In this document: positions 29,641 through 54,812 of the stretch, one piece after another
Position numbering within the stretch: the first letter of the stretch is position 1
How the letters are laid out: every line of letters starts with the position of its first letter
Assembly (NCBI GenBank): GCA_048937405.1
Contig: JBHLNF010000002.1
Coordinates: 288,001-352,000 of the forward strand
Reading direction: 5' to 3'
Length of the DNA: 64,000 bases
DNA from: Promethearchaeota archaeon
GTDB taxonomy: Archaea; Asgardarchaeota; Lokiarchaeia; Sigyniarchaeales; SOKP01
Program-made: the position numbers and the translations under genes
Notes under the pieces: model-generated
Database searches by the model: none
What the model saw: only the letters and a program-made list of their open reading frames with translations
What the model was told of the DNA's origin: nothing

Positions 29641-29706
29641 CCCAAAAACTCAATTGGAAAAAAATGGTAAATTTAATGTCTAATTTCAATGAAAATTCTT
29701 TTAAAA
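29641..29706 (-). repeat. Dispersed cassette-boundary repeat, copy 1 (degenerate)
   Basis: Reverse complement reads TTTTAAAAGAATTTTCATTGAAATTAGACATTAAATTTACCATTTTTTTCCAATT. Confidence 0.7.
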
Positions 29707-29822
29707 AATTTTAGGAACATTTTAGGAATATATGGATTTACTAATTAAGATGATTATTGTAAATGATAAACTAAAAACAAAATAAAAAGAAGATATAATA
29801 AAATTGGTTGATATTTAATGAG

Positions 29823-31856
29823 TTATTTATCAAGGTTATATGCAACTTCAAATCCTTCATGTACAGCCTCCAGCATTGTCCTCGGTTCTTTACTATCCCC
29901 TATATTAAACAGTTTGAATGAGGGATTCGTGGATTTTATTTTTTCATAAAGGTCGGTATTACTTTTCACGCCGGTTGCGAGGATAAATGTATCAACATTA
30001 TCAATTGTATGGATTTCTTGACCCTGATCGGGAATATTAATCCTGTATTCAATTGAATTTCCCTCGAATTTTATAATTTCTACGTTCAAAATCTCTTTTA
30101 TCTGTAATTTTTTTGAAATACCGATTAAATATCCTCTTGTTGTTCGTCCCACATTCATAGCCAGTTTCGGCAAAACATCTATTATGGTAACATTTCGATT
30201 TCCTTTTAGCCATCGTTTGATAATTTCCTCTTGGGGTATTAATTCATAAAAACTAAGGAAATGTGCAATATCGGAATTAATCGCTCCCAATTCAGCAGCC
30301 CAAATTGCTGTCTCTAAACCGGTTGCTCCCCCGCCAACAACAACGACATTTTTACCAACAACATGATTCCCAGCTAAGGCTTCCTCTGCAGAACACATAT
30401 CACTCCCATTTGATCCGTCAATACCAGGAATATCAGGGATGGAAATCTTTACACCAGTTGCAAATATCACTGCATCTGGATTAAAATCGTTGATAAATTC
30501 TGGTGTTGCTTCGGTAGCCAATCGTAATTTTATATGACGATGATGGATTTGTGCTTCATAATAGCGTATCATTTCTGAGATGTTTCTTCTGCTATGGGGA
30601 ACAGCAGCAGTTTTCATCTGTCCTCCAATAGAATCACTTTTTTCTACTATGGTAACGTCATGACCCAGTATAGCAGCAATACGTGCCGCTTCAAGTCCAC
30701 CCGGACCGCTCCCAACGATTAACACTTTTTGAGGATTGTCAGTTTTCTTACTTAGGTCAATATCTCCCTCTTTTGCGGTAATATAATTTCTCATACACAC
30801 GACAGACTTACCACTGAAGATAGTGTCAAAGCATCCTTGATTACATGCCACACATTTCATAATATCCCAAAGTCGGTTTTCTCTTGCTTTATTGGGTAAT
30901 TCAGGATCAGCGATTAACGCTCTTCCCATACTAATAGCATCTACTCTTTCATCTCTTAATATTTGCTCGGCAATTAAGGGATCATTTATCCGATTCGCCA
31001 TAAAAACAGGGACATTCACCTCCTTTTTAATGTTCTCACCGAGATATACATAGGCCGCTTGTGGCACCATCATAGGGATTTGAGGAATCCGTGTCTCGTG
31101 CCACCCTCCCGTTACATTCAAAAATTCTATTCCTGCTTCTTCATAGTGTTTTGAAAATATAGGGCTTTGCGTCCAATCATTGGATCCTGGAACGAAATCA
31201 TCACCAGCAACTCGCATTCCAACTCTCATTTTACCACCAACTCTCTTTTTCATCAGTTTTATTAGCTCGAGTGGATATCTTAATCGATTTTCTAAAGATC
31301 CACCATACTCATCGGTTCTTTTGTTGATCTTTGGGCTTAAAAATTGAGTAATTAAATACCCTGCACTTCCAAGTAATTCCACTCCATCAAAACCAGCTTC
31401 CAATAAACGTTCTGCAGCTAATGCATGATCTTCCTGTATTTGTTTTATTTCATCGATTGTTAATTCCTTAGGTATCAGGCCTGTAAGGTTTGATCTCACT
31501 GCAGAAGCAGATACCGCATTTTTACCAGAAAAATATGCTCCTGAATGCATTAATTGTGCCATAACTTTAACACCATGTTTATGCATTTTTTCGGCAAAAG
31601 CGGCATATCCAGGAATTAGTTTATCATCTCCGATATATGGTGTACCTCCACTATTAGGACTAATTCCTATTCCACCAATTATAATTAATCCTGCTCCACC
31701 TTTTGCTCGTTTTTCGTAAAAATTGCTAAAAATATCAGTTACTTCTCCTTTAGGTGTATACCCCAAACCCAGAGCGGGCATAACAATTCGATTTTTTATT
31801 TCTAAATCCTGAATTTTAAAAGGTTCAAATAATTTAATGAGTTTCATTTTTTTCAC
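29823..31856 (-). CDS. NADH:flavin oxidoreductase / 2,4-dienoyl-CoA reductase (FadH-like)
   Basis: OYE barrel (GYLITQFLSPKINKRTDEYGGSLENR), GWHETRIP, CVACNQGC, GSGPGG. Confidence 0.9.
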   Translation of the reverse strand: MKKMKLIKLFEPFKIQDLEIKNRIVMPALGLGYTPKGEVTDIFSNFYEKRAKGGAGLIIIGGIGISPNSGGTPYIGDDKLIPGYAAFAEKMHKHGVKVMAQLMHSGAYFSGKNAVSASAVRSNLTGLIPKELTIDEIKQIQEDHALAAERLLEAGFDGVELLGSAGYLITQFLSPKINKRTDEYGGSLENRLRYPLELIKLMKKRVGGKMRVGMRVAGDDFVPGSNDWTQSPIFSKHYEEAGIEFLNVTGGWHETRIPQIPMMVPQAAYVYLGENIKKEVNVPVFMANRINDPLIAEQILRDERVDAISMGRALIADPELPNKARENRLWDIMKCVACNQGCFDTIFSGKSVVCMRNYITAKEGDIDLSKKTDNPQKVLIVGSGPGGLEAARIAAILGHDVTIVEKSDSIGGQMKTAAVPHSRRNISEMIRYYEAQIHHRHIKLRLATEATPEFINDFNPDAVIFATGVKISIPDIPGIDGSNGSDMCSAEEALAGNHVVGKNVVVVGGGATGLETAIWAAELGAINSDIAHFLSFYELIPQEEIIKRWLKGNRNVTIIDVLPKLAMNVGRTTRGYLIGISKKLQIKEILNVEIIKFEGNSIEYRINIPDQGQEIHTIDNVDTFILATGVKSNTDLYEKIKSTNPSFKLFNIGDSKEPRTMLEAVHEGFEVAYNLDK

Positions 31857-32124
31857 ATTTACTTTTATATTTATTAGATATTATTAGTTTTGAACTATTA
31901 ATGAATTTTAACTCTTTTCTTTTGATAAAATTGATATAATGGATTTTAAATTAGGATCAATTCATAGAAACCTTTGTATTTAAACATAGTATCATTTATT
32001 TTACTATTTTATCTTAGATGCGATATCTAATATATTTGAGATATTTACCCAGTTTAGTCAAGCTTTACTTGCCCTTCATTCATTAAAATCAATTTATTGA
32101 CAAATCAAAGAATCTTTTCAGATA

Positions 32125-32802
32125 TTGGTCTCCAAATTTTTTATAACAGTTATTTTTTTAATTTCTAATATGAATATGAGAAATGAAGTGGATGGTCTTT
32201 TTGAATTAACTCCAGATTATGTTGAAAAGGCTATTACAGTGGCAGGGAGTGCTTTTCAAGATGATCCTATAATGGTATTTACATATCCTGATGAAGAAGA
32301 AAGAAAACAAAATGCACAATATGGATTTTACATGCTCTATAGGTATGGAATAAAATTTGGACTCACTTATGCTACATCTAAGAACTTGGAAGGAATTACA
32401 ATATGGCTCCCCCCTGATAGAATCTATCCTTCTACCTGGACAATGATGAAAATGGGTGGTTTTTATACTATGCGAAAAGTAGGGTTAAAACTAAAAGCAA
32501 TGAAAAGATCTATGATGGTTTTTAAGTTTGAGGAAGAGAGACATAAAGAACTTGTACCCTATGATCATTGGTATTTCCAAAATATTGCCGTTAAACCAGA
32601 AGAACAAGGAAAAGGATATGGGGGATTATTGATAAAGACTATGCTACACACAATTGAGAATGATGGATTACCAATTTATGTAGAAACTAACACTGAAAAA
32701 GCCATGTTAATTTACCAGAAATATGGATTTGAAATACTAGAACACGTTGTAATCCCTGATACTGATATACCTCTTTGGTGTATGTTAAAAACATCAAAAT
32801 AA
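32125..32802 (+). CDS. GNAT N-acetyltransferase
   Basis: AVKPEEQGKGYGG acetyl-CoA motif, YQKYGF. True start probably near 32170. Confidence 0.9.
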   Translation: MVSKFFITVIFLISNMNMRNEVDGLFELTPDYVEKAITVAGSAFQDDPIMVFTYPDEEERKQNAQYGFYMLYRYGIKFGLTYATSKNLEGITIWLPPDRIYPSTWTMMKMGGFYTMRKVGLKLKAMKRSMMVFKFEEERHKELVPYDHWYFQNIAVKPEEQGKGYGGLLIKTMLHTIENDGLPIYVETNTEKAMLIYQKYGFEILEHVVIPDTDIPLWCMLKTSK

Positions 32803-32882
32803 GCGTGATAAATGAATATAGTATATACAAAAAAAGTTCCATTAGACCCTTAGCTTTCTTTTGCAGAAGAATATCTAAGAAC

Positions 32883-33392
32883 TTATGCATCTAATTTGGT
32901 TCCACAGTAAACACAATAGGTATCATTTCTACTATTTGCTTCGCCGCAATGAACACACAATACTTTTGATAAATGAGCAATTTGATGTCGTGAAATTTCT
33001 TGGATTTTATCAAGATTAGCTAAGAAAGTATAGTCAATTTCTTTAACCAGTTTCATTGGAGTAATGCCCATTTCATAAGCCCATTCTTTCATCATGTCTT
33101 TTGGTACTTTCGATGGGATACCCTTTCCAAAATTTGAGTATTTAACAGAAATGCTAACATAAGTAAGGCCATCAGAAGGATTATACCCAAAAGTCATTTC
33201 ATATGTTTCACCCATAGATGTACCATAAATATGCATTGAAGTACCATGACGTATCGTAAGTTTTCGATATAACTTATTTGTAGAGATGTATTGATCTTTT
33301 ATTTTACCCTTATGATTCCTAAAAAATACTAATGTTCTATTCCAGGTATCTTCTAAAGGTAAATTAAGTGCATGATAGCAATATCTTTTCAT
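32883..33392 (-). CDS. Hypothetical protein with C-terminal double zinc ribbon
   Basis: CVHCG...YCVYCGTKL. Confidence 0.75.
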   Translation of the reverse strand: MKRYCYHALNLPLEDTWNRTLVFFRNHKGKIKDQYISTNKLYRKLTIRHGTSMHIYGTSMGETYEMTFGYNPSDGLTYVSISVKYSNFGKGIPSKVPKDMMKEWAYEMGITPMKLVKEIDYTFLANLDKIQEISRHQIAHLSKVLCVHCGEANSRNDTYCVYCGTKLDA

Positions 33393-33699
33393 AATTCAGT
33401 ATATTACAATCTTGTTTTAGACTTTATTGTTTTTCATAAACTTATAAATATTAGTTTAAAAAAAAAATTAAAATAAAATGGAGTCCAATTTTTCATTTAT
33501 AACTTTAATACTAAAAAAATAATTTCATGAATATACAACTCTAGGGGAGCATGGGTTTAGTTTAGAGTACTTTTATAAAAAATTACGAGCTATGACACCT
33601 TTAGAGTATGCATTGGGTTAAAAAGCATAAAATTAAGGAATTACCTTTTAATTTTTAATAATTTGATGTCATCCTGATTTATAATATTAATAATCAGTA

Positions 33700-34782
33700 T
33701 TATTTCGTTAGAGCCCAAATACAATTAATATTATCTTTGAAAATCCTCGCGTTTTTGAATTTTGTAGATTTTATAAACTGTTTAAAACTTTTTTCATTGT
33801 AATGCCTCGCACCAAAGAATACTTCATCCCATTTCAATATACCTTTCCCTAAAGTCTTAACCTTTTCTACTTCAAATGTATTGGGAACCATTTCCTCTCC
33901 CATAACTAAAACACCATCATCTTTTAATAATTTATATATTTCATCAATAAAATCCTTCCTATAGATATCATCACCTCTTATTTCATGAAGAACCTCATTT
34001 AGTAGAATTACATCAAACTTATTATCTTCATCTCTGAGAAGGTATTCTCTTACATTACAATTTACTACTTCAACCTGATTTTGCCAATTATTAATTTTAA
34101 TCAGTTCCTTAATTATTGATATTACAGTGGGATTAGGATCGATTGCGACAAAATTGGTATTTTTATATTTTTCCACCCAAATTTGCAGATTTATTCCAAT
34201 TCCACAGCCAATCTCAAGAATTTGACCTCCATTTCGCAATTTTTGATGATAATTTTTAAAATTTTTGGAAAATAACCTTAATCTTGCAATATTTTTAATT
34301 GTACTCAACTTTTGACCATCTCTGCTTGAGGCTTCACAAACTGCTCCATCCAAACGTTCGATGATTCGACCTGTTTTGAAGCTCTCAAAAATTAAATTCT
34401 GCAAGACTGCGTTTTTATAGACCCACCCATATAAATTTCCTAAGTAGAATGAAGAATCGGTATCCACAAAAAGTTCATAAATATATGGGGCAGTTTCAAG
34501 ATACCCATTTTTTTCTTGACTAACATTGAAGATACCTAATTCTAGAGCAATATGAAACCATGCATCCAAGAAAATTGGGTCTAACTTTAAATCATTTGCT
34601 ATAATATCTGGAGAAAAAATTATAATTTGCGTTTTCCCATTAACACCATCTGATTTTTCTTTTTTTAATAAATAATCAAAGATTCCAAGTCTTCTTCCTA
34701 AAGAAATCAATAATACAGAATAATATCCTTGAATACATTCCCGGCCATAATAATCAATTATTTTATTTAATTCTTGAATCAT
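33700..34782 (-). CDS. Class I SAM-dependent methyltransferase with N-terminal wHTH
   Basis: ILEIGCGIG, AID, FDVILLNEVLHE, LKDDG. Confidence 0.88.
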   Translation of the reverse strand: MIQELNKIIDYYGRECIQGYYSVLLISLGRRLGIFDYLLKKEKSDGVNGKTQIIIFSPDIIANDLKLDPIFLDAWFHIALELGIFNVSQEKNGYLETAPYIYELFVDTDSSFYLGNLYGWVYKNAVLQNLIFESFKTGRIIERLDGAVCEASSRDGQKLSTIKNIARLRLFSKNFKNYHQKLRNGGQILEIGCGIGINLQIWVEKYKNTNFVAIDPNPTVISIIKELIKINNWQNQVEVVNCNVREYLLRDEDNKFDVILLNEVLHEIRGDDIYRKDFIDEIYKLLKDDGVLVMGEEMVPNTFEVEKVKTLGKGILKWDEVFFGARHYNEKSFKQFIKSTKFKNARIFKDNINCIWALTK

Positions 34783-34957: not shown

Positions 34958-35011
34958 AAAAATGGAATGAATGGCACATTCAGAATCGAATCTAAATGAA
35001 AATTTCTTTGA
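34958..35011 (-). repeat. Dispersed repeat, copy 2 (degenerate)
   Basis: Reverse complement reads TCAAAGAAATTTTCATTTAGATTCGATTCTGAATGTGCCATTCATTCCATTTT. Confidence 0.65.
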
Positions 35012-35081
35012 GTTAAAATTGATAATAAAAAAGTATATTTCAACGTCTTGTCCTATTTATAAATAACGTATAACTTGGTGA

Positions 35082-35648
35082 TTGAGCTTTATTTTAATTC
35101 GTTTGATTGTGAGTGCTAGATTTAGAACGAATTGTTATCTTTTCGGAGATGAAAATACAAAAGAAATTGTTATTATTGACCCCGGGATTGATTCAAATAA
35201 TATCAAAAACCTTATTACTAGAGAAGGATACAAACCGGTTTATATAATAGGTACACATGCACACCATGACCATATTCAATGCGCTGCTGATGTTATGGAT
35301 TTTTATCATATTCCATTATTGATCAAGGATTTTGGGAATAGGAGTATTGAAACTATAAAACTCATTAAAGAAAATGATGTAATCAAAATTGGATCAGAAT
35401 GTCTTCATGTAATTGAAACACCAGGGCATTCCAAAAATGACATAATGCTGATTGATTACAATAACAAGCTTATCTTTACAGGAGATACTCTTTTGAGGGG
35501 AAGAATCCCTTGGCAACTAGTGAATTATGATGATTTGATGACTAGTATTAAAAAAATATTATACTATCCTAAAATTTCAGGTGAATTCAAAATCTATCCA
35601 GGTCACGGTAGTCATTCTACAATCGGCAAAGAAAGGTTGAATTATTAA
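35082..35648 (+). CDS. MBL-fold metallo-hydrolase (glyoxalase II-like)
   Basis: THAHHDH, TPGHS, FTGDTL, PGHG. Confidence 0.92.
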   Translation: MSFILIRLIVSARFRTNCYLFGDENTKEIVIIDPGIDSNNIKNLITREGYKPVYIIGTHAHHDHIQCAADVMDFYHIPLLIKDFGNRSIETIKLIKENDVIKIGSECLHVIETPGHSKNDIMLIDYNNKLIFTGDTLLRGRIPWQLVNYDDLMTSIKKILYYPKISGEFKIYPGHGSHSTIGKERLNY

Positions 35649-35671
35649 TTTTATGTTAATTGTATTGGATA

Positions 35672-35711
35672 GATAAATTTCAAGTCTGATTTCAATGAAA
35701 ATTTAGTAAAA
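35672..35711 (-). repeat. Dispersed repeat, copy 3
   Basis: Reverse complement reads TTTTACTAAATTTTCATTGAAATCAGACTTGAAATTTATC. Confidence 0.8.
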
Positions 35712-35754
35712 TCATGTGGATATTAATAAGGGTTCTCCTAAACAAATGATGTTC

Positions 35755-36669
35755 TTATAAGCCTCGAAGATAATCAGGTCGACGCATTTTTGGGTTTTTA
35801 ATACCCATTTCAATTGCTTTAAGAAATTGTTTTTTATCTCGACTTAATTCTCCTTTCAAATTTAGATAATTTGAAGCATGATTTGTGTTAAATACACATT
35901 TCTGCAAATCATCAGAGGTATGTTCTATCATCGTATATAATTCTTCTAAAATTTGGGTGCTTGAACATGGGTGGAATTCTTCATTTGCTTGTTGAGTCCA
36001 CAATTCAGATCCTGGAGTAACCCTTAAGGTTAAGGGTGAGATATACCAAGGAATTGGAGTTGGTGGAGACATCCTATTAATTAATTTTGCAGATTCAATC
36101 GCATGTTTTCGACTTTTTTCAGGATCATTTCCAGCAAGTCCTAATAAAAATATACCGGACCAAGAAATTCCTGCTTTATGACACTTTTGAGCTGCGAGGG
36201 CAAACTCATCCTGCGTGGTTCCCTTTTTACAATTTTTTAGAACATCATTATCTCCACTTTCGATACCCACGTAAACCATTGTAAATCCACTATCTGCTAT
36301 TCTTTTTAAATCTTCGTCCGATTTTTTTATGATATCTTTAGCATGAGCATAAGCACTTACTTTCTTGAGATTCGGATGAATTCTATAACAATATTTAGTC
36401 AGTTCAATGAGGACCTCAGGTTTAACAACAAACGCATTTCCATCTTCAAAAAAGACTTTACGTATGCGATTTCCATACACAACTCTCGCAACTTTAATAT
36501 CCTCTTTAATTTCTTCAAGATTTCTGCGAATTGAGAATGTTTTTGACCGATACATGGAACAAAAGGTACATCTATGGGTGCAGCCATTTGTTATTGCAAT
36601 CAATAAGGCATCCCACTCCGAAGGTGGTCTAAAGACGGGATCTTCCAAATTACCTACTACATAATTCAT
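35755..36669 (-). CDS. Radical SAM protein, tandem copy A
   Basis: CTHRCTFC, RPPSE, YVGIESG, NHASNY. Confidence 0.92.
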   Translation of the reverse strand: MNYVVGNLEDPVFRPPSEWDALLIAITNGCTHRCTFCSMYRSKTFSIRRNLEEIKEDIKVARVVYGNRIRKVFFEDGNAFVVKPEVLIELTKYCYRIHPNLKKVSAYAHAKDIIKKSDEDLKRIADSGFTMVYVGIESGDNDVLKNCKKGTTQDEFALAAQKCHKAGISWSGIFLLGLAGNDPEKSRKHAIESAKLINRMSPPTPIPWYISPLTLRVTPGSELWTQQANEEFHPCSSTQILEELYTMIEHTSDDLQKCVFNTNHASNYLNLKGELSRDKKQFLKAIEMGIKNPKMRRPDYLRGL

Positions 36670-36847: not shown

Positions 36848-36889
36848 GAAAGGTTGCACAGAGTCGGATTTCAATGGAAAATTTTTAAA
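36848..36889 (-). repeat. Dispersed repeat, copy 4
   Basis: Reverse complement reads TTTAAAAATTTTCCATTGAAATCCGACTCTGTGCAACCTTTC. Confidence 0.7.
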
Positions 36890-36934: not shown

Positions 36935-37849
36935 TTAGAACCCACGAAGATAATCAGGTCGACGAAATTGTGGATATATAATACCCAGTTCAACTGCTTT
37001 AAGAAATTGTGCTTTATCTCTGCTTAACTCTCCCCTTAAATTTAAATAATTTGAAGGATGATATGTGCTAAATACACACTTCTGCAAATCATCAGAGGTG
37101 TGTTTTATCATCGTATATAATTCTTGTAAAATTTGAGTACTTGAACATAACTGGAATTCTCCATTTGTCTGTTGAGTCCACAGCTCAGATCCTGGAGTAG
37201 GATTTAAGGTTAAGGGTGAGATATACCAAGGAATTGGGGTTGGTGGAGCCATTCGATTAATTAATTTTGCTGACTCAATCGCATGTTTTCGACTTTTTTC
37301 AGGATCATTTCCGGCAAGGCCTAATAGAAATATACCAAACCATGCAATGCCTGCTTTATGACATTTTTGGGCAGCGAGAGCAAGCTCATCTTGGGTAGTT
37401 CCCTTTTTACATTTTTTTAGAACATCATCATCTCCACTTTCGATACCCACGTAAACCATTGTAAATCCACTATCTGCTATTTTTTTTAAATCTTCATCCG
37501 ACTTGTTTATTATATCTTTAGCATGGGCATACGCACTTACTTTCTTGAGATTCGGATGGATTTCATAACAGAATTCCGTAAGTTCAATGAGAACCTCCGA
37601 TTTAACAACAAACGCATTTCCGTCTTCGAAAAATACTTTGCGAATACGATCTCCATATACAGCTTCCGCTATTTTAATATCACCTTTAATTTCTTCGAGA
37701 TTTCTACGAATTGAAAACGTTTTTGACCGATACATGGAACAAAAGGTACATCTATGGGTGCAGCCATTCGTTATTGCAATCAATAAGGCATCCCACTCTG
37801 GGGGTGGTCTATATACTGGTTCCTCCAAATTTCCAACTCTAAAATTCAT
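36935..37849 (-). CDS. Radical SAM protein, tandem copy B
   Basis: Same length as copy A, about 42 of 304 residues differ (counted by eye). Confidence 0.92.
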   Translation of the reverse strand: MNFRVGNLEEPVYRPPPEWDALLIAITNGCTHRCTFCSMYRSKTFSIRRNLEEIKGDIKIAEAVYGDRIRKVFFEDGNAFVVKSEVLIELTEFCYEIHPNLKKVSAYAHAKDIINKSDEDLKKIADSGFTMVYVGIESGDDDVLKKCKKGTTQDELALAAQKCHKAGIAWFGIFLLGLAGNDPEKSRKHAIESAKLINRMAPPTPIPWYISPLTLNPTPGSELWTQQTNGEFQLCSSTQILQELYTMIKHTSDDLQKCVFSTYHPSNYLNLRGELSRDKAQFLKAVELGIIYPQFRRPDYLRGF

Positions 37850-45312: not shown

Positions 45313-45340
45313 ATCTCAGAACTTCCGATTAAAAAAATTT

Positions 45341-46229: not shown

Positions 46230-46305
46230 TTTTCAAAGGATTTTTCATTGAAACCAGATGCTGAATTTACATTCCATTTCTAATTTCAAAGCAAAATTAG
46301 ACAAA
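46230..46305 (+). repeat. Dispersed repeat, copy 6 (long form)
   Basis: TTTTCAAAGGATTTTTCATTGAAACCAGATGCTGAATTTACATTCCATTTCTAATTTCAAAGCAAAATTAGACAAA. Confidence 0.88.
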
Positions 46306-46899: not shown

Positions 46900-46911
46900 T
46901 TTGTTTATAAT

Positions 46912-46958
46912 TTTTCTACGAAATTTTCATTGAACTCAGACTCTGAATTTACCTTTCC
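46912..46958 (+). repeat. Dispersed repeat, copy 7
   Basis: TTTTCTACGAAATTTTCATTGAACTCAGACTCTGAATTTACCTTTCC. Confidence 0.92.
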
Positions 46959-47082
46959 TGAAAGTTATGACTTCTATATCAAATCAGAATTTAATAGGAT
47001 TAGCAGAAATAAAAATTAAAAAAAAGGGAATCACATAAACAAATTAGCAGGATTGTAAACGTGGGTAAGTAAATCTTCAAAA

Positions 47083-47355
47083 TTATTCTTTTGAACCAAT
47101 TTTCGTTCGAATAATTTTAAACACTACGGGGTTATTCGGATCTGGACAACAAACCATTGTTGTATCCTTATCTTGGGACCAAGGAAAAGAACCGTCAAAT
47201 CTTAATGTGGTAATAGACGGATAAATCGTATGATACGCAGACTGGCAAAGTTTCCCAACGTCATCGGGATATTTAAATTTATCACCGACCTTATGCCCTA
47301 GAGGACATTCTCCTCTTTCGAGGATTTTAACAATCTCTAAAGTAATTTCATTCAT
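47083..47355 (-). CDS. TIGR04076-family small Cys protein
   Basis: CPLGHKVGD, LCQSA, CCPDPNNPVVFKI. Confidence 0.82.
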   Translation of the reverse strand: MNEITLEIVKILERGECPLGHKVGDKFKYPDDVGKLCQSAYHTIYPSITTLRFDGSFPWSQDKDTTMVCCPDPNNPVVFKIIRTKIGSKE

Positions 47356-47457
47356 TATTTTTCCACCTTTATTTAATAATTATTTTAATCTTTTCATTAA
47401 TTAAACTATTTCTTATCTTAGAGAGATTCTCCAATATTTCTAGAAGTACCTTCAATT

Positions 47458-47504
47458 TTTTCAAAGGAATTTTCATTGAAATCAGACGCTGAATTTACGT
47501 TTTC
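47458..47504 (+). repeat. Dispersed repeat, copy 8 (overlaps the acyltransferase stop codon)
   Basis: TTTTCAAAGGAATTTTCATTGAAATCAGACGCTGAATTTACGTTTTC. Confidence 0.92.
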
Positions 47505-48687
47505 TCAAATGAACTTTTTCAAGGACAAAATGACTCAATAGATAGCAAACTATAACTGTTAAAGGAAATACAATTGCCACTTTTAAAGTAGGATAAATTC
47601 TTAAGAATGCAAATCCAAGTGATATAACAATAAGGACGGGTGGATGAAGAAGGTACATATGATATGCGCTACTGGATAGGTTATGTAATATAGATCCTTG
47701 TTTATTGAATTTTGAGTAAAAAATCTTAATCAAAATAAAAATAACTCCCATACAGATGACATTATCAACCATAGCAAGTAAAAAAGCATGCAAATTGAGT
47801 CCCCCATTGAAATCTATAAATTCTTTGTCCATTGCTATAGCTAGAAAAAAATCAATATAAATTATTACGAGTGAAATTATTATTGTAATTAACCAAATTT
47901 TTACATGTCTTTTAGTCATTTTTTCGAACCAACGATACCTAATGCAAATAACTCCAATGCTGAACATCATTAGATACTGAATAAGTTGACCCCATGGTAT
48001 TTCCAAAGGGCGTACATCTATAGGTAAGAATATACGAACTAAAAAAGTAAGAAATCCTAACCCTATAGCTAAAAGAAGTAAATAAGAATATTTTGGAATC
48101 GAAAATTCCTTTGGAATTTTTTGCTGTACCCAACCTAACTTAGTTACTTGACGCCAAAGTGTATAAACAGCAGTGAATATTAGTAAAACCTTAAGAAACC
48201 ACATAGGGCCCCCAAATGAAATGAAGTTAATAAAATCTTCCCAAGATAAAAATCTACTGAAGTAATAATCTAAAAATGTTCCTTGCAGCATAGGGTTTGT
48301 ATTCCAAGAAGGGATCCCTAATTTTGCTAGGGTATAAATCATAAGAGGATTTATTAATAGGGTATAAACAAGGAGAGGGATGCCGAGACGAATAAGGCGT
48401 TCTTTCCAAAAACTGCGAACACCTTTTCGATCATAACTTTTAGGAGTAAAATAACCCCCTAATAAAAAGAATAATCCTAAGAGTGAAGTTTGAAAAACAC
48501 CTCCTATTGAAGCGACAAGTAGAAAGAAAATTTCACTGAATGGATCAACTGGATTAGATTCTTTATAATACCACCACCCTACTTCAAAATAAGTGACCAT
48601 TGTGTGCCAAAAAATCACTAGAATAGTAAAAAGGACTTTTATATTGTCAAGGAAAAGATACCGTATTCTCTCAGATTCTGTGTTCAT
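47482..48687 (-). CDS. Acyltransferase family 3 (MdoC/OafA-like) membrane protein
   Basis: FLDNIK...VIFWH, LFFLLGGYF, RLIRLGIP, GPMWFL, YLLHPP. Confidence 0.9.
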   Translation of the reverse strand: MNTESERIRYLFLDNIKVLFTILVIFWHTMVTYFEVGWWYYKESNPVDPFSEIFFLLVASIGGVFQTSLLGLFFLLGGYFTPKSYDRKGVRSFWKERLIRLGIPLLVYTLLINPLMIYTLAKLGIPSWNTNPMLQGTFLDYYFSRFLSWEDFINFISFGGPMWFLKVLLIFTAVYTLWRQVTKLGWVQQKIPKEFSIPKYSYLLLLAIGLGFLTFLVRIFLPIDVRPLEIPWGQLIQYLMMFSIGVICIRYRWFEKMTKRHVKIWLITIIISLVIIYIDFFLAIAMDKEFIDFNGGLNLHAFLLAMVDNVICMGVIFILIKIFYSKFNKQGSILHNLSSSAYHMYLLHPPVLIVISLGFAFLRIYPTLKVAIVFPLTVIVCYLLSHFVLEKVHLRKRKFSV

Positions 48688-48892
48688 ATGAAATATTATA
48701 ACCTTATTAACTCTATTTCTTCAACTCACAACGATTTAATTATTTTTTTTGATTTAAAACCCTTAGCATTTATTTACACATATAATTTCATCTAAGATCT
48801 TAATATTTTTTGTTTATTTGATTATATAATAAAAAGATGGGTTTTAAAAAAGAACATACCAATCTTATTACTTTTTATTTTGTCTTTTTGTA

Positions 48893-48972
48893 TGGAATTT
48901 TCACCAAAATCAGACTCTGAATTTACACTTCCATCCAATTTTCACAGAAAATTAAGACAAAATTTAAAAAGG
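48893..48972 (+). repeat. Dispersed repeat, copy 9 (long form)
   Basis: GGAATTTTCACCAAAATCAGACTCTGAATTTACACTTCCATCCAATTTTCACAGAAAATTAAGACAAAATTTAAAAAGG. Confidence 0.9.
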
Positions 48973-49057
48973 CTCGAACCGTGTGTTTCTTAAAAAGGAG
49001 GAAAATACAAATAAGAGAAAAATGCATTAGAACAAAAAAATGATCTAATGTAGAAAA

Positions 49058-50164
49058 ATGAGAGAGAATAAAATAATTACTGATATAGAGCAGTTAACAC
49101 CAGAATGGTTGACGAGGATCCTCAAAAATAAAGGATACTTTAACCAAGGAAAAGTAACTAAAATAATTAAGAAAAGATCACAAGAAACTATAACTTCTAA
49201 TGTACATTTCTTAGAGCTAAACTTTTCAAATGATGCTCAAACGGAACCATCTTCTTCTGAAATAGTTGTAAAAATCCCCAAATCCAATGACGTATCTAGG
49301 TTTGTTGGGAAACATGAAGCAAAATTTTATCGTATCGTAGCTGAAATGATGAGCGAAATGCCAATTCCAATCTGTTATGATGCAGCGTTTTCTGAAGAAA
49401 CTGGTTTTTCACATATTATCCTTGAAAATTTATCAAAAACACATGTGGAAAATTTCGAATATCCTCCTTCAAAACGAAATAATGAAAGAGCAATTGACTG
49501 TTTAGCAGAATTACATGCTTTTTGGTGGGATCACCCCATGCTTAAGGAACTATCGAAAAATTCTTACGTTCTTTACACATTTAAAGAAAATTCTTTTAAT
49601 AAAGAAGAAATTTTTAAATGGTTTAATAACCAGAAAATGACACTCAAGCCATTTTTAGAAATCTTAGGAGAACGAATAGGAAATAAAAGTAAGGAGTTAT
49701 TTAAAACCATATTCTCATTATATCCTCAAGTGGCATATGAACGAATCGCAAAAGAGAATATAACAGTAATCCATTGTGATGCTCATTTCGGGAATTTTTT
49801 CTATCCAAAAGACATAATAGATCAAAAATATAAAACAATATTACCTGATTGGCAAAATTGGAGTATCGGTGTAGGAGGTCAAGATCTAGCATATATGATA
49901 GGACTCTCTTTCTTTCCTGACTATCGGCATTTAATGGAAAAAGATCTTATCAAACGTTATCATAATAAGCTTTTAAAGTCAGGTGTGAAAAATTATAGCT
50001 GGGACGAGTGTTGGTATGATTACAAGTTATTTACTATATTAAATATTTACAGAATTATCTGGTGGTGGAGTATTGGTATACCTTCTATAGTTTGGTGGCC
50101 TCAATTAGAAGCTTCCATTAATACTATAAAAGATTTAAATTGTATGGAGCTTTTAGAAAGCTAA
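49058..50164 (+). CDS. APH/choline/ecdysteroid-kinase-like phosphotransferase
   Basis: VVKIP, EAKFY, IILENL, HCDAHFGN, DWQ, DLAY. Confidence 0.88.
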   Translation: MRENKIITDIEQLTPEWLTRILKNKGYFNQGKVTKIIKKRSQETITSNVHFLELNFSNDAQTEPSSSEIVVKIPKSNDVSRFVGKHEAKFYRIVAEMMSEMPIPICYDAAFSEETGFSHIILENLSKTHVENFEYPPSKRNNERAIDCLAELHAFWWDHPMLKELSKNSYVLYTFKENSFNKEEIFKWFNNQKMTLKPFLEILGERIGNKSKELFKTIFSLYPQVAYERIAKENITVIHCDAHFGNFFYPKDIIDQKYKTILPDWQNWSIGVGGQDLAYMIGLSFFPDYRHLMEKDLIKRYHNKLLKSGVKNYSWDECWYDYKLFTILNIYRIIWWWSIGIPSIVWWPQLEASINTIKDLNCMELLES

Positions 50165-50494
50165 AATACTTATAGTTTTTTTTTTAATAAATTTCATTGT
50201 TGGAATTGTGTCTTTAGTTCCGTACACCAGACTTAATATGAGAAGAAGGAAGAATCAGATGCAAAATCCTCGAAATTATAAATAACTCCTCTTTTTTTAA
50301 TTTAAAGAAAATTAAGCCTCTTTTTTTGAAAATTAATATATTGCTCGAAACCAATCACTGCATCCAGTAATATCAGTAACTTTATCTTTCATCCCTGGAA
50401 TATTTGCTAATAAAATATTGAAATTCAAGAATAAATTATATAAAAGAGCGTATCTTCCTCTCTTTTAATCCAATAATTTTTTACAAAAAAGTAA

Positions 50495-51253
50495 ATGAAG
50501 GATGAAATAATTATTAAAAGAAAAGTTTTATTGTTATCGATTTTCGCTATTCTTGTATTTTTTTCAGTAATAAATTTCTTGCCAGTTGTTCACGGTTTAA
50601 ACCTTAATATCAATGATGCAGAAAATGATGTTATCCGTAATTGCGGTACTGGGGACGATACTGGCGATTATTATGATGAAATAGATATTGTTAAACTCAT
50701 TATTTCTGGAAGAAATGTTAATGTAACAATAGCGGGTAGTTTAGCTAAGTGGAATCTAAGTCACTATGGGAGTGTTATATTTTCTGAATGGTTCAGGGCT
50801 GTTTCAGCCCCCAGTTATTTTGCATATAATGTTCCTTATTATGCTATTGATTACGATAATGACATTGGTTCGATGGTAGCTAAATTGGAAAAGGGATACC
50901 CTCTTAATGATGAAGGTTATGCTTATGAAGTTTGGAATGGTACTGCCTGGGAAGATAGATTTGATATGGTAGGAAGTCCTTTCAATATAGTAGACACTGT
51001 GACTAATCATTCAATAACTTTTTATATTCCTGATGCAGTTGAGGAACTTCCAAGCAATATGAAAGCAGTTGTCAGTAATCGTTTCTCAAAAATCTTTGGG
51101 AACTGTGATTTTATAGATTTTACTCCTCTTCCTTCTGATCATGGGATTAATTCTGATCAATGGATTTCTAGTTATGATATATTCGTACTTATATGTACTA
51201 TGATTGGTATTTCATTTATAATAATTAAAAACTACAAAACACAGAATCCATAA
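50495..51253 (+). CDS. Secreted protein with C-terminal sorting-like anchor
   Basis: Signal peptide, C-terminal ISSYD plus TM helix plus basic tail (Loki-CTERM-like). Confidence 0.7.
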   Translation: MKDEIIIKRKVLLLSIFAILVFFSVINFLPVVHGLNLNINDAENDVIRNCGTGDDTGDYYDEIDIVKLIISGRNVNVTIAGSLAKWNLSHYGSVIFSEWFRAVSAPSYFAYNVPYYAIDYDNDIGSMVAKLEKGYPLNDEGYAYEVWNGTAWEDRFDMVGSPFNIVDTVTNHSITFYIPDAVEELPSNMKAVVSNRFSKIFGNCDFIDFTPLPSDHGINSDQWISSYDIFVLICTMIGISFIIIKNYKTQNP

Positions 51254-51330
51254 AACAAATTATTTAATTTCTTATTTTTTCTTTAGCTATAATCTAAATT
51301 TAAAACCTTAACTCATGAAGGAATAATCTG

Positions 51331-51657
51331 CAGCGGTTATTCTTATATGAGAGTCATAATAACACCGTTTCGGGAAATAATATAAATTATAACTATCGTG
51401 GAATATATATACATGGCAGCTCTTATTATGGAACAATTAGTAATAGCAATTATATCTAAGGAAACACTTTAATCGGAAATTATTGTTGTATTTACAAAGA
51501 TGAAATTTGTTACGATAAAATTATTGAAAATAACGATTGTGGTGAAAGCAACGAGAGATTCCCTTTCGGAATTTTAATTTCAATTATTAGTATAGGAGGT
51601 GTAATAGGGATAGCAACCATCCTTCTAATTAGACACAAAAGGAAAGGAACGGGATAA
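51331..51657 (+). pseudogene. C-terminal remnant of a NosD/beta-helix surface protein
   Basis: Reads LYESHNNTVSGNNINYNYRGIYI...NYI*GNTLIGN...FPFGILISIISIGGVIGIATILLIRHKRKGTG*. Internal TAA at 51457, no start codon. Confidence 0.75.
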
Positions 51658-51839
51658 TACACTGTTATAATGGTACCTCATGAAACCTCTCCAAACACTT
51701 GACTTACCCTCACGCTCTAAGATTGAAACTTGAGTGTCTAAACACTAAAATAAAAAATTTTAATTATTTGAGAAGGTTCTATTTTATATAGTATCAAGGA
51801 CGCGGATTAGCGGTAAATATCAAGGAGAGTAATAAAAGA

Positions 51840-52342
51840 ATGAGGATTTTACTATTTCTCCATGGAACCTGTATCATGCACAGGAATGCCTTAGGTCTAT
51901 CAAGAATTCAAATAGTACAGCAGGTTATTGAGGATAATGATCATTCAATCTCTGATTTTGCTTCGTATATTCCAATTGGTAAAGTTATTAAGAAATTAAC
52001 ATCATGGAAAAATCAAGGGGCTGAGATTTCATATCTTAGTTCTCATTTAACTCTTGAAAACGTGAAAAGAGACGAAATTGTATTAAAAAAATGTAATTTT
52101 CCTAAAGGCACCATATTTTATCGACAAAAAGAGGAAGATTGGAACGTACAAATTGAAAAAGCAAAACCAGATATAATAATTGAAGATGATTGCGAGAGTA
52201 TTGGAGGAAAACATCAGATGACTTTCCCTAATCTTAAACCGGAATTACAATCTAAAATAATTTCTATTGTTATAAAAGAATTCGGGGAATTGATCATCTT
52301 CCTGATGATATAAATAGACTAAAGGATTTTGCTGCTGAATAA
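51840..52342 (+). CDS. HAD-like hypothetical protein, frameshifted near the 3' end
   Basis: One extra G in the G4 run near 52284 restores KEFGGIDHLPDDINRLKDFAAE*. IIIEDD motif present. Confidence 0.7.
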
Positions 52343-52359
52343 TGATATTTTAATAAGAC

Positions 52360-52436
52360 TTTTCAAAGGAATTTTCATTGAGATCAGACTCTGAATTTAC
52401 CTTTCCATTCCAATTTTCACAGAAAATTGGGACAAA
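52360..52436 (+). repeat. Dispersed repeat, copy 10 (best full-length copy)
   Basis: TTTTCAAAGGAATTTTCATTGAGATCAGACTCTGAATTTACCTTTCCATTCCAATTTTCACAGAAAATTGGGACAAA, with a perfect CCAATTTTC-ACA-GAAAATTGG hairpin at 52410-52430. Confidence 0.95.
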
Positions 52437-52532: not shown

Positions 52533-53162
52533 GTGGGAATTTCTCAAATAAATTTAAATAAAAGCTCTTTTATAATTAAGTACAAGTTAATCCCACTAAT
52601 TAGCAAAAAAATGAGAAAAATGAAATTAGCTAATAAACTAGTCATGCCTTTAGTTTTGGTTCTTTTATCTCTTCCAATTAATGTTGGAGCAACATATTGG
52701 CTTAAGGACAGTTTTGAGGAGTCTAAAGTCGTTAATAATGAATTTTGGTACTTTAATTTAGGATCGAGCACTGCATCTTACAAATTAGATATTGACATAA
52801 CGAGTGAAAGATCCATAGATGTTTTGTTTATGGATGATGAAAATTATTATAAATATGATTTTGGAAGTAATTTTACGTATTTTGCCGGAGCAAGTCAATT
52901 AGATATAACTTTCATGGACGTTGTTTATACTACAACTCCACAAATTGCTTACTTTTTAGTAATTGACAACACGGATAATGTACCGAATGGAGCAAGTTAT
53001 ACGGGTCCAACAAATGTAACTGTGAAGGTTATTTCTACGAGAGTAGATGGTAGTAACCTCACTATACCTGGTTATCCAATATTGATCCTTGGTGTATTTA
53101 CTGGAGTTGCTGTTATTATAAGCTATAAGAAAAAGAAAAAAAGTTTTAAATTTATAAAGTAA
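52533..53162 (+). CDS. Secreted protein with IPGY-TM-basic (Loki-CTERM/PGF-CTERM-like) anchor
   Basis: Signal peptide from an ATG near 52611-52620. C-terminal IPGYPILILGVFTGVAVIISYKKKKK. Confidence 0.75.
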   Translation: MGISQINLNKSSFIIKYKLIPLISKKMRKMKLANKLVMPLVLVLLSLPINVGATYWLKDSFEESKVVNNEFWYFNLGSSTASYKLDIDITSERSIDVLFMDDENYYKYDFGSNFTYFAGASQLDITFMDVVYTTTPQIAYFLVIDNTDNVPNGASYTGPTNVTVKVISTRVDGSNLTIPGYPILILGVFTGVAVIISYKKKKKSFKFIK

Positions 53163-53401: not shown

Positions 53402-54034
53402 ATGAATAAATTAAAAGTTCCTTATCGTGTAACTGAGGGACAAGCTAAAGCGGCTGCTAAAACACTTGCTCGAGCATTCCATGATTACCCCATACATACT
53501 TATTTATTCCCTGATGAAGATGAAAGAATTAGAAAGGTACCAATACTTATGGAATATTTAGTTCGTTATGGAATCATCTATGGTGAAGTATATGGTAGCT
53601 CACCAAATCTAGAGGGTATAGCTGTTTGGCTTCCTTTTTGGGATGCTGAAATGACTGAAGAGAGATTAAAAAAATGTCGTATGTCTTATAGAGATGGTAA
53701 AGAACTTCCCTCTGTATTTGATGAGGAATTTTCTAAGAACTATGAACCTATAGAACAGTGTGAATACAGATGTCATAAACAATACGCTGATTTTTTTAAC
53801 TGGTATTTATATCCAATTGGTGTAGATCCAGATCATCAAGGAAGTGGCTATGCGGGGTTATTATTAAGATCGAAATTCGAGGAAATTGACAAACAAGATA
53901 TACCTTGTTATTTAGAAACTTATAAGGAAAAAAATGTTCCGCTCTATCAACATTTTGGTTTTAAAACTGTTGAAACCGGAATAATAACCAGAACAGATCT
54001 TACATTTTGGGCAATGTTACGCAAAAAAGATTAA
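53402..54034 (+). CDS. GNAT N-acetyltransferase (paralog of 32125-32802)
   Basis: GVDPDHQGSGYAG, YLET, LYQHFGF. Confidence 0.92.
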   Translation: MNKLKVPYRVTEGQAKAAAKTLARAFHDYPIHTYLFPDEDERIRKVPILMEYLVRYGIIYGEVYGSSPNLEGIAVWLPFWDAEMTEERLKKCRMSYRDGKELPSVFDEEFSKNYEPIEQCEYRCHKQYADFFNWYLYPIGVDPDHQGSGYAGLLLRSKFEEIDKQDIPCYLETYKEKNVPLYQHFGFKTVETGIITRTDLTFWAMLRKKD

Positions 54035-54041
54035 GAAATTA

Positions 54042-54126
54042 TTCCACTAAATTTTCATTGAACTCTAACTCTAAATTTTCCTTTCCATTCAATTTTCACA
54101 GAAAATTGGGACAAAAGTTAAAAAGG
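54042..54126 (+). repeat. Dispersed repeat, copy 12 (long form)
   Basis: TTCCACTAAATTTTCATTGAACTCTAACTCTAAATTTTCCTTTCCATTCAATTTTCACAGAAAATTGGGACAAAAGTTAAAAAGG. Confidence 0.92.
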
Positions 54127-54217
54127 TTGGGAGGACAACTAATCGTCTCCTAATTAGAGGCAAAGATTATAAATATTATCATATCTTAATTTTTGTTGAA
54201 AAAGAAGGATTTATATT

Positions 54218-54610
54218 ATGCAAGAAAAGTGCCTTGATTGTGGAGCGGATATAAAACCAGGATGGGATTTCTGTCTGACATGTGGTTCAAAATTCGCAGA
54301 TCAGATGGAAAGGACCCTAGAAGAGCAGCAAATAATAGATAAAAAAATAAAAGAGAAGCAAAAGCAGCAAAAAAAGGAATTTAAAGAAAGTATGCGGGGA
54401 CGGAAAGAAAGGAAGAGAAAGGAGATTAAAAAAGCTATTCGAAGATCAATGATGAAATTCCTTATATTCCTTGGGATCAGTCTTTTGACAGGGATAATTG
54501 GATTTTTCATTGGATCAATTTATTTTGATCAGGGGGGTCTAGGATTTATTATTGGATTTTTTACTCCCTTGATTGTGTTAGGTGTTATAGTATGGATTTC
54601 TAATTATTAG
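54218..54610 (+). CDS. Zinc-ribbon protein with two C-terminal TM helices
   Basis: CLDCG...FCLTCG, charged linker, two hydrophobic helices. Confidence 0.8.
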   Translation: MQEKCLDCGADIKPGWDFCLTCGSKFADQMERTLEEQQIIDKKIKEKQKQQKKEFKESMRGRKERKRKEIKKAIRRSMMKFLIFLGISLLTGIIGFFIGSIYFDQGGLGFIIGFFTPLIVLGVIVWISNY

Positions 54611-54767
54611 TCTTAGATTTCATCGAGAGGGAGAAAATTTTTTTTTAATAGTTTATAGAAGGGAGTGATGTTGGGTGAGCAAATTGGATAACACCCCCTC
54701 CCCTTGAAAAACCACTGATCATGGATGGTTGTTCCATATAGCAGAAATTTACTAATTTTCTGATTTA

Positions 54768-54812
54768 TTTCAAAGGAATTTTCATTGAACTCAGACGCTG
54801 AATTTACATTTC
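54768..54812 (+). repeat. Dispersed repeat, copy 13
   Basis: TTTCAAAGGAATTTTCATTGAACTCAGACGCTGAATTTACATTTC. Confidence 0.93.

Follow-up and report, generated by a model that had tools for sequence, protein, structure and literature searches.

A conserved 47-nt repeat of Lokiarchaeia as the probable attachment core of small integrative elements and their integrase-less derivatives

What kind of site divides the accessory genes of an Asgard archaeon into small repeat-bounded units, often of a single gene? The question is raised by a 64-kb stretch of Lokiarchaeia DNA (the window, to which all coordinates refer), for which an integron-like gene-capture system had been proposed. Asgards are the archaeal group closest to eukaryotes, and their genomes are large and rich in genes, many of them acquired; to our knowledge, the vehicles of this gene flow are poorly known.

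The original prediction listed at least 13 copies of one motif, and all 13 are present, at or within ~10 nt of the predicted starts. A sensitive nhmmer scan of the whole 64 kb with filters off gave zero further copies, so the core-gene blocks of the window are without the repeat, as had been claimed; the chance expectation is 0 matches in 100 shuffles. The copies are real, but they do not form the one array first described: the four between 29.6 and 36.9 kb lie in minus orientation and the nine at 42.8-54.8 kb in plus orientation, and the region therefore holds two divergent arrays. Intervals between copies contain one to four genes, with a single gene in each at 46.2-48.9 kb and 52.4-54.8 kb, as predicted, and Pfam agrees with the earlier reading of the cargo (GNAT, GrpB, EcKL/APH-like kinase, acyltransferase-3, MBL and methyltransferase). 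Pfam finds no recombinase gene in the 64-kb window, again as foreseen. The features are as follows.

29663..29709, minus: core copy 1 (nhmmer E=1.3e-8), last of the minus array, adjoining the 3′ end of a PrpD-like gene
29823..34782, mixed strands: four-gene cargo unit (Pfam, ORFs), with the next four genes
29823-31856, minus: OYE/pyridine-nucleotide oxidoreductase
32125-32802, plus: GNAT
32883-33392, minus: Zn-ribbon protein
33700-34782, minus: SAM methyltransferase
34964..35012, minus: core copy 2 (nhmmer E=3.4e-7)
35082..35648, plus: metallo-beta-lactamase-fold hydrolase, cargo (PF00753 E=1.3e-17)
35665..35710, minus: core copy 3 (nhmmer E=7.4e-8)
35755..36669, minus: radical SAM protein copy 1, cargo, in a duplicated gene-plus-core unit (Pfam)
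36859..36884, minus: core copy 4, partial and decayed (nhmmer E=4.3e-4, model positions 14-39 only)
36935..37849, minus: radical SAM protein copy 2, cargo (Pfam)
41594..42118, plus: Arf-like small GTPase, conserved left flank of the plus array (PF00025)
42270..42764, minus: DUF7000 protein, cargo (Pfam)
42840..42884, plus: core copy 5, first of the plus array (nhmmer E=6.5e-12)
43073..45670, mixed strands: three-gene cargo unit (ORFs, Pfam), with the next three genes
43073-44710, plus: CpXC/TPR protein
44686-45312, plus: protein of no assigned family
45341-45670, minus: protein of no assigned family
46227..46305, plus: core copy 6, long form with core and hairpin (nhmmer)
46387..46899, plus: GrpB, cargo (PF04229 E=2e-52)
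46909..46961, plus: core copy 7, short form (nhmmer E=9e-16)
47083..47355, minus: 90-aa protein of no assigned family, cargo
47455..47504, plus: core copy 8, short form, overlapping the final acyltransferase codons (nhmmer)
47482..48687, minus: acyltransferase-3, cargo (PF01757)
48885..49024, plus: core copy 9, long form
49058..52313, plus: three-gene cargo unit (ORFs, Pfam), with the next three genes
49058-50164, plus: EcKL/APH-like kinase
50495-51253, plus: 252-aa protein of no assigned family
51840-52313, plus: 157-aa protein of no assigned family
52357..52436, plus: core copy 10, long form (nhmmer)
52533..53162, plus: cargo protein of no assigned family, 183-209 aa depending on start codon
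53218..53295, plus: core copy 11, long form (nhmmer)
53402..54034, plus: GNAT acetyltransferase, cargo
54038..54125, plus: core copy 12, long form with hairpin and TATA-like box (nhmmer)
54218..54610, plus: Zn-ribbon membrane protein, cargo
54765..54815, plus: core copy 13, last of the plus array, facing the conserved flank (nhmmer E=4e-16)
56956..58641, minus: thermosome subunit gene, conserved right flank (PF00118)

The conserved unit is 47 nt long and has sharp edges, reading TTTTCAAAGGAATTTTCATTGAAATCAGAC[T/G]CTGAATTTACCTTTCC in the 13 window copies. This is the part of the 77-nt consensus first proposed that holds; the second half, a hairpin CCAATTTTC-ACA-GAAAATTGG followed by GACAAA, is found in 5 of the 13 and gives the long form. 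Across 217 non-redundant copies from ~40 species most core positions are at least 90% conserved, the sole free one being the centre of a TCAG-ACN-CTGA dyad, and the core is near-invariant across two genera. Read off the consensus, the layout is one of 13-nt outer arms flanking a 14-nt centre. Single copies show no significant folding beyond the optional hairpin. Behind some 31% of all cores come the hairpin, a TATA-like box and the N-terminal remnant of a small RHH gene, and copy 9 illustrates the order: core, hairpin, TATA-like TTTAAAAAGG, Shine-Dalgarno and a dead RHH gene start (ATG to ATA). Copies of this stretch, 110-150 nt long and 83-91% identical, are present in 9 other genomes (matches within window positions 48873-49043).

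Related genomes and one metagenome contig carry the RHH gene intact, overlapping a gene for an Xer-like tyrosine recombinase, and this operon is the candidate for the recombinase that the original prediction expected to co-occur with the repeat. It lies directly behind a core, with a second co-oriented core 5-9 kb downstream. The order core, RHH gene, tyrosine recombinase, cargo, second co-oriented core is seen at L250 (5.1 kb), L276 (6.9 kb), L277 (9.3 kb) and L275 (9.1 kb), with the recombinase gene beside one repeat and a direct repeat at the far end of the element, an arrangement of the attL/attR type. A further core-RHH-integrase copy is present at L275, the sequence examined there ending before the core downstream of it, and an integrase-less unit sits between the two integrase-bearing units of this locus. 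Integrase-less units bounded by copies of this att repeat, in the manner of CIMEs, occur in the window, at L275 and at many other loci. A truncated core-RHH-integrase segment is present at L008; at odds with the association, an integrase copy at L278, in the second genus, has no detectable core upstream. The recombinase (306 aa) matches PF00589 (E=1.7e-22), its nearest solved structure is archaeal XerA 5HXY, and its best model is likewise archaeal XerA at 94.5 bits, below that model's cut-off. It has the catalytic R-K-HxxR-H-Y set in RIGE, HTFRR, CHK and CYV motifs, the residues being assigned by eye from the translation and not from a structure. Its partner, a 172-aa RHH/coiled-coil protein, is likely a regulator or directionality factor.

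Within the Promethearchaeota family of the source, 99 of 133 genomes have the core, at 8-38 copies per genome; among 265 other Asgard genomes it occurs in 3. The original prediction held that copies scattered uniformly over the genome, also beside core genes, would speak against it, and this is partly what is seen: copies are spread over at least 10 loci per genome, and some adjoin core genes such as mvhD/hdrA and a thermosome gene. Such dispersal fits a multi-copy att site rather than a REP or MITE. The integrase is found in 24 of 134 family genomes, often as a pseudogene or fragment, a patchiness and decay that fit ongoing loss. The source genome has ~30 cores and no cognate integrase, and its arrays are thus orphaned at present. 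This absence, common to most core-bearing genomes, counts against the explanation that we prefer below, as does G002, which has 38 cores and no integrase match, so that core count does not follow integrase presence. It also counts against it that no excision or integration event is directly visible in the Logan assembled contigs, which break at every core.

The Arf-like GTPase has a 74% aa ortholog in G022, placed equally relative to the thermosome gene, which itself has a 76-82% nt identical match, full or partial, in 25 of 30 other genus genomes searched; the G022 interval between the two holds different genes and zero cores. At an mvhD-anchored core the cargo differs among five species, L131 and L133 differ by one extra unit between cores, and a 300-nt repeat (35722-36021 and 36902-37201, 83% identity) supports duplication of the radical SAM unit. 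Some genes and their right-hand cores also move as one. G003, G007 and G008 match the DUF7000 block (42263-42875) at 85-88% identity, and four other species have the 90-aa gene and the core to its right at 85-90% identity; copies of the acyltransferase-3 gene in other arrays are 79-89% identical, and the GNAT gene at 53402..54034 belongs to the commonest cargo family (11 members in the loci studied). Between species, cargo genes are 84-90% nt identical and the thermosome genes of the same species 77-82%; because the cargo is the more alike, exchange of cargo genes between species is suggested.

Flank comparisons place the exchange within the core. Homology between species at a core extends to the left only in 423 cases, to the right only in 445 and to both sides in 10. 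Of the 59 core-adjacent members of the 13 gene families tabulated, 57 hold the family's orientation to the core, and the constant partner of a cargo gene is the core on its right-hand side; the F24-F25 operon, inverted relative to the core in one species, is an exception that counts against the explanation preferred below. Variation at core positions 8-13 and 34 follows the left flank, and from positions 44-50 onward it follows the right flank, which puts the exchange point within positions 35-44, at the invariant CTGAATTTA close to where the core ends on the right, a mapping based on 24 and 16 homology groups and one informative internal position.

We consider it probable that the 47-nt repeat is the core att site of small integrative elements of Lokiarchaeia and that the window holds their integrase-less derivatives. 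A complete element would be 5-9 kb long and consist of the core, hairpin, TATA-like promoter, RHH-Xer-like recombinase operon, cargo and a second co-oriented core. The candidate integrase would swap strands inside CTGAATTTA, presumably by way of a circular intermediate, and integration into a resident core would yield one more co-oriented core each time, such that tandem stacks of elements would build up by accretion. Later the integrase and RHH genes would be deleted or decay, leaving units of cargo plus right-hand core, and the single-gene units may have arisen in this way. These leftovers may still be substrates for an integrase in trans and be shuffled among loci and species, and the window would correspond to two accretion arrays diverging from a central native segment. 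Since some repeat-bounded units carry the integrase, the architecture is that of serial (tandem) integration followed by integrase loss, which is known in bacteria and archaea, the archaeal cases having been reviewed (PMC8371274). Some arrays occupy sites where relatives have no core (L076 versus L123; the RNR locus of L250 versus G000), and their left edge is without a core, so secondary-site integration or another route is needed there.

A broader reading, which we hold tentatively and at somewhat less than even odds, is of a distributed, integron-like network made up of the cores together with the Xer-like integrase/RHH pair. Single-gene cassettes would be exchanged as circles among dozens of chromosomal cores, across species and genera, driven by the integrase on a minority of units, with some cassettes expressed from the leftover RHH-integrase promoter. 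A cassette would then comprise the cargo and the left 35-44 nt of a core, and the whole would be a second type of cassette system, having evolved independently of attC integrons.

Could host homologous recombination alone account for the arrays, with the core as a short portable homology and the RHH-integrase as one common cargo among many, linked to it incidentally? The absence of the integrase from most core-bearing genomes is in keeping with this, and Campbell-type integration of a one-core circle would also yield co-oriented arrays. We regard it as unlikely, because the position linkage confines exchange to ~10 nt near the right end instead of spreading it across 47 nt, because the core has sharp edges, near-invariance over two genera and a dyad with one free central position, and because the recombinase gene stands where an att-adjacent int is expected, between bounding direct repeats, at no fewer than four independent loci.

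The core is also short, intergenic, partly palindromic and dispersed, and its long form has a promoter-like TATA box, as might befit a non-autonomous transposable element (MITE/REP-like) or a regulator or terminator site common in accessory islands. This is very improbable. Of 144 pairs of neighbouring cores separated by under 8 kb (median spacing 1.2 kb), 140 (97%) point the same way, with no bias to the strand of either flanking gene; the four arrangements of flanking genes are near-random (++42, -+37, --42, +-53), excluding a promoter or terminator role of the core, and core orientation over 91 loci has no tie to GC skew or gene-strand bias. Moreover, outside the 47 nt there are neither terminal inverted repeats nor target duplications, no empty site polymorphic for a lone copy was seen in the between-species flank comparison, and no Rfam family matches the core.

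An oriT-like or rolling-circle nick site, at which an HUH relaxase or Rep would nick the core and transfer or excise DNA up to the next co-oriented core, could draw on the weak NikA-like match of the RHH protein as a possible accessory (PF21983, 26.1 bits against a cut-off of 27), on units with one constant and one variable end, and on the dyad beside the exchange region. It is very improbable, given that the PF03432 relaxase was not found in 54 genus genomes, that the source genome lacks a Y1 transposase and that the gene overlapping the RHH gene encodes a tyrosine recombinase and not an HUH enzyme.

A true integron (IntI, attI, attC) with atypical attC is the least credible reading and extremely improbable: co-oriented repeats do part mostly single genes of cassette-like function, and integrons are reported in archaea, Asgard MAGs included (PMC9668308), but RYYYAAC/GTTRRRY boxes (R''/R') are absent from the 217-copy consensus, as first noted for the window, the repeat is conserved in sequence rather than structure, the recombinase reaches 52.6 bits with the integron-integrase model TIGR02249, whose cut-off is 265 bits, and is closer to XerA, and the integrase is itself contained in repeat-bounded units, two of them in the L275 array, with no fixed intI-attI platform. 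The array nonetheless behaves in an integron-like way, and of the gene-capture proposal what survives is that the repeats are recombination junctions delimiting mobile modules, with the enzyme outside the window; the dedicated platform does not. CRISPR or Cas1-mediated insertion was rejected, as there is no Cas1 and G000 has no CRISPR-like arrays.

The analysis yields three testable pieces, namely a 47-nt site with defined limits, a stretch of ~10 nt to which exchange is mapped and a candidate integrase with an RHH partner, which together explain recurrent variable islands in a Lokiarchaeia family. They indicate that integron-looking arrays can arise from ordinary integrative elements using a multi-copy, free-standing att, with a bearing on how reports of integrase-less cassettes in MAGs are read. 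Site and enzyme are also a possible genetic tool for Lokiarchaeia, for which we know of none of this type.

Among known systems, the closest likeness is to accretion arrays and CIMEs, the integrase-less derivatives of integrative elements found at the 3′ end of fda in Streptococcus. Both have a tyrosine recombinase gene beside att, direct att repeats bounding each unit, serial integration at one site, later integrase loss and att-flanked units mobilisable in trans. Here, however, att is a free-standing, intergenic 47 nt instead of a tRNA or protein gene end, is present at many loci in each genome and common to at least two genera, and bounds units that are often single genes (0.55-1.4 kb). Integrons, sedentary chromosomal ones included, and CALINs, which are clusters of attC sites without integrase, share with these arrays co-oriented sites parting mostly single accessory genes of either orientation, a fixed relation of each gene to its own site, a crossover near one site end that makes each site a hybrid of two neighbours, a general lack of integrase and a recombinase of the Xer/IntI branch; they differ in attC architecture, in the IntI-specific model match and intI-attI-Pc platform, in that the integrase here rides on repeat-bounded units with an RHH partner, and in that the site here is conserved in sequence and not only in fold. 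The Xer-dependent pdif modules of Acinetobacter plasmids and IMEX elements likewise combine an Xer-family recombinase with short sites flanking discrete gene modules. A pdif-type site was rejected for the core, since pdif sites have 28 bp in an 11-6-11 layout and successive sites face opposite ways; a further difference is that the recombinase here is a dedicated element-borne paralogue and not, as far as shown, host XerA. REP/BIME sequences and MITEs resemble the core in being short, partly palindromic, intergenic and multi-copy, whereas the core is set apart from them by strict local co-orientation, by the lack of their terminal repeats, target duplications and single-copy insertion polymorphism, and by its link to an integrase operon.

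Repeat finding, pattern search and profile search all retrieved the same core family from the window, and nhmmer, run without filters on a 217-copy profile, recovered all 13 copies named in the original prediction and no others across the 64 kb. No core matches were found in shuffled window sequence, and the repeat observation is real and strongly non-random. The four minus-strand and nine plus-strand cores located by nhmmer are as follows.

29663-29709, minus strand, core
34964-35012, minus strand, core
35665-35710, minus strand, core
36859-36884, minus strand, core (decayed)
start 42840, plus strand, core
start 46227, plus strand, core
start 46909, plus strand, core
start 47455, plus strand, core
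start 48885, plus strand, core
start 52357, plus strand, core
start 53218, plus strand, core
start 54038, plus strand, core
start 54765, plus strand, core

The gene map and Pfam annotations of the window also agree with the earlier account, including its statement that no recombinase is present, as no recombinase domain was annotated there.

In an in-register alignment of 217 non-redundant copies from about 40 species the core has sharp edges, with conservation beginning at a T-run and stopping 47 nt further, and a consensus of TTTTCAAAGGAATTTTCATTGAAATCAGAC[T/G]CTGAATTTACCTTTCC. Conservation is at least 90% at most of positions 14-49; position 34 is free (T 53%, G 43%) and is the centre of a TCAG-ACN-CTGA dyad, and the 13 outermost nt of the two sides pair up as an imperfect inverted repeat when read from the consensus (AAAGGAATTTTCA / TGAATTTACCTTT). 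About 31% of the copies are of a long form, with a hairpin, a TATA-like box (TTTAAAAAGG) and GGAGG followed by ATG. Changes in one arm of the hairpin stem are compensated in the other (CCAATTTC/GAAATTGG, CTAATTT/AAATTAG, CAAATTT/AAATTTG), and the hairpin is significant downstream of long-form cores (p=7e-10) and not significant downstream of short-form cores (p=0.14). No Rfam family matches the repeats; a sub-threshold C/D-box snoRNA match at 42250-42327 (33 bits, gathering score 60; E=0.0025), which overlaps the DUF7000 gene at its 3' end, is probably due to chance.

Neighbouring cores less than 8 kb apart are co-oriented in 140 of 144 pairs (median spacing 1.2 kb), and their orientation is independent of the strands of the flanking genes, whose arrangements are evenly spread around the cores (++ 42, -+ 37, -- 42, +- 53), ruling out a promoter or terminator role. 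Within the genome studied here (G000), about 9 of 12 clusters seemed to have a core strand that tracked local GC skew, a relation that we dismiss because core orientation is independent of skew over 91 loci of many genomes (43 positive, 48 negative), and a replication-linked orientation is ruled out by the same result. Over these loci core orientation shows no dependence on gene-strand bias, and GC skew tracks gene strand (r=0.74).

Among 13 tabulated gene families, 57 of the 59 members that adjoin a core have a constant orientation relative to it, with the right-hand core as the constant partner; the mobile unit is therefore the cargo together with its right-end core. In one operon the orientation relative to the core is inverted. 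Cargo genes found in the window reappear in other arrays beside other neighbours, and share 84-90% nucleotide identity across species, with 77-82% for the thermosome gene in the same species. Flank homology between species was seen on one side only in 868 comparisons and on both sides in 10, and these comparisons revealed no empty site for a single core copy. Arrays are present at some loci where relatives carry no core. Logan contigs from the best DNA runs end in every core, and the core-core joints among them, with short sides of 21-54 nt, most likely stem from other loci or organisms. The 3' end of a radical-SAM gene and its core are tandemly duplicated (35722-36021 and 36902-37201, 83% identity over 300 nt), the second core having already decayed.

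Comparison of core pairs sharing only the left flank (50 pairs in 24 groups) or only the right flank (38 pairs in 16 groups) points to an exchange point within the core. The left flank is linked to variable positions 8-13 and 34, with position 34 identity of 0.72 in left-flank-sharing pairs vs 0.46 in random pairs; the right flank is not linked to these positions (0.53 at position 34) and is instead linked, as the left flank is not, to positions 44-46 and from position 50 onward (position 50 identity 1.00 vs 0.45 in random pairs). This pattern suggests a switch within the invariant CTGAATTTA(C) at positions 35-44, the evidence being moderate because of the small sample and the relatedness of the groups, and a delimited exchange region of this kind favours a site-specific enzyme over generalised homologous recombination. 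Every unit has a core on its right, and often none is found at the left edge of an array (the mvhD locus; core-bearing locus L076 vs L123), which an exchange near the right end of the core explains; after integration at a secondary site, a core-like sequence would appear at the right junction only.

The two arrays of the window diverge from a central segment with genes for a DUF362 protein and an Arf-like GTPase, and the terminal core of each faces conserved DNA, on the PrpD side at the left and the thermosome side at the right. The GTPase gene (41594-42118, an Arf/Gtr1-like small GTPase of the Asgard 'eukaryotic signature' type, in the native segment between the arrays) is syntenic with the thermosome gene in the related genome G022, in which both have the same order and orientation and the intervening 10 kb is coreless, with eight other genes. 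The gene content next to the thermosome gene differs in three further species too, and these comparisons show that the plus-strand array is lineage-specific in its entirety. Of the nine cores in this array, five are long forms, whose hairpin and TATA box now lie ahead of plus-strand cargo genes, and a dead start of the ribbon-helix-helix (RHH) gene is still recognisable at 48885-49024; in another species just the final 170 nt of the kinase gene remain behind this stretch, a decay intermediate. G+C content is 33-38% at 24000-32000 and 36000-42000, which cover carboxylesterase, PrpD-like and OYE-type oxidoreductase genes, vs 28-30% elsewhere, which hints at a different origin. A 1575-aa ORF (16170-20897, minus strand) with many 69-nt (23-codon) tandem repeats (families D1-D4, D8 and D9) may encode a beta-helix-type surface protein; the Beta_helix/NosD Pfam matches are to array cargo elsewhere.

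The core-bearing organisms are known as MAGs of the Promethearchaeota/Promethearchaeia (Lokiarchaeia) from sediments, marine ones among them. The G000 assembly (4.47 Mb, 29 contigs), in which the window occupies C28:288001-352000, contains about 30 cores in at least 10 clusters.

Genomes with the core motif (29-mer of the core, up to three mismatches; the reversed-pattern control gave zero matches)
Same family, all: 99/133
Own genus: 51/53
Second genus: 38/42
Other genera of the family: sporadic
Other Asgard: 3/265

No exact core match is present in IMG/VR viral contigs, the motif is absent from the searched supplementary files of the archaeal-integron paper (PMC9668308), and a limited literature search found no description of the 47-nt site or its element. 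One exact match lies on DATKTW010000066.1, a contig binned as a Nanopelagicaceae bacterium, and is probably mis-binned Lokiarchaeial DNA.

The ORF that begins behind long-form cores encodes an RHH protein with a weak NikA-like Pfam match, of which only the first 20-57 codons remain at most places. Metagenome contigs were scanned for the core and all 262 resulting loci were then searched for tyrosine recombinases, and one such gene was found on contig L250, organized as follows.

Class II ribonucleotide reductase gene, with a long-form core starting 27 nt after it
2235-2753, RHH gene, intact, 172 aa
2750-3670, tyrosine recombinase gene, 306 aa, overlapping the RHH gene by ATGA
Three cargo genes after the recombinase gene
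7213-7262, second core, co-oriented with the first

The recombinase matches PF00589 (E=1.7e-22) and PF16795, its usual catalytic motifs are readable, and its best NCBIfam model and best solved relative are archaeal XerA and XerA 5HXY, respectively; it scores far under all ortholog cut-offs. The core-RHH-integrase order also occurs in three related genomes (G041, at three loci, G211 and G019). In L275, L276 and L277 a second co-oriented core lies 6.9-9.3 kb downstream, and the L275 array comprises an integrase unit, an integrase-less unit and an integrase unit; no core is detectable upstream of the L278 integrase copy. Integrase relatives are present in 24 of 134 family genomes, many of them fragmentary or with stops; most core-bearing genomes lack the integrase, and G000 has no copy.

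Outside complete elements, the RHH gene is often head-to-tail with a convergent gene for a TPR (MalT-like) protein of 600-950 aa, to which a Ser/Thr kinase domain is sometimes fused, as a recurrent two-gene cargo unit (L139:471-890, L018:565-2700, L140:3573-3911). The array-like contig L140 also encodes an AAA_15/AAA_21 ATPase and a Schlafen/AlbA_2 protein (4770-7682), which look like defence genes among the cargo.

Several other candidate enzymes were rejected. Apart from XerA, the only G000 tyrosine recombinase is a 391-aa integrase 170 kb away with a C-terminal coiled coil (C28:147977-149152), which is sporadic (3/41 relatives), unrelated to the core and probably part of another integrated element. 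About 21 TnpB-like (PF07282) genes or fragments are present in G000, all of them more than 5 kb from any core cluster; one fragment is about 30 kb from the first window core. The single serine recombinase is a broken IS607-type copy located elsewhere (C10:106420-106656), Y1 TnpA is absent from G000 and relaxase PF03432 from 54 genomes, and a CRISPR/Cas1-type target duplication is rejected, G000 having neither Cas1 nor CRISPR arrays.

The best-supported reading takes the repeat as the att core of a family of integrative elements, with integron-like arrays made up of their derivatives; the single-gene units may have originated by internal deletion of full elements or by true capture. Integrons are the closest functional analogue, but the arrays do not qualify as integrons proper, as three defining integron features were absent on testing and the L250 recombinase scores 52.6 against the integron-integrase model (cut-off 265). 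In bacteria, CIMEs reflect elements with a tyrosine recombinase that integrated in tandem and later lost the integrase. Tandem integration with subsequent integrase loss has likewise been described for archaea, in a review that does not mention Asgard archaea (PMC8371274), and is the closest known process to the core arrays.
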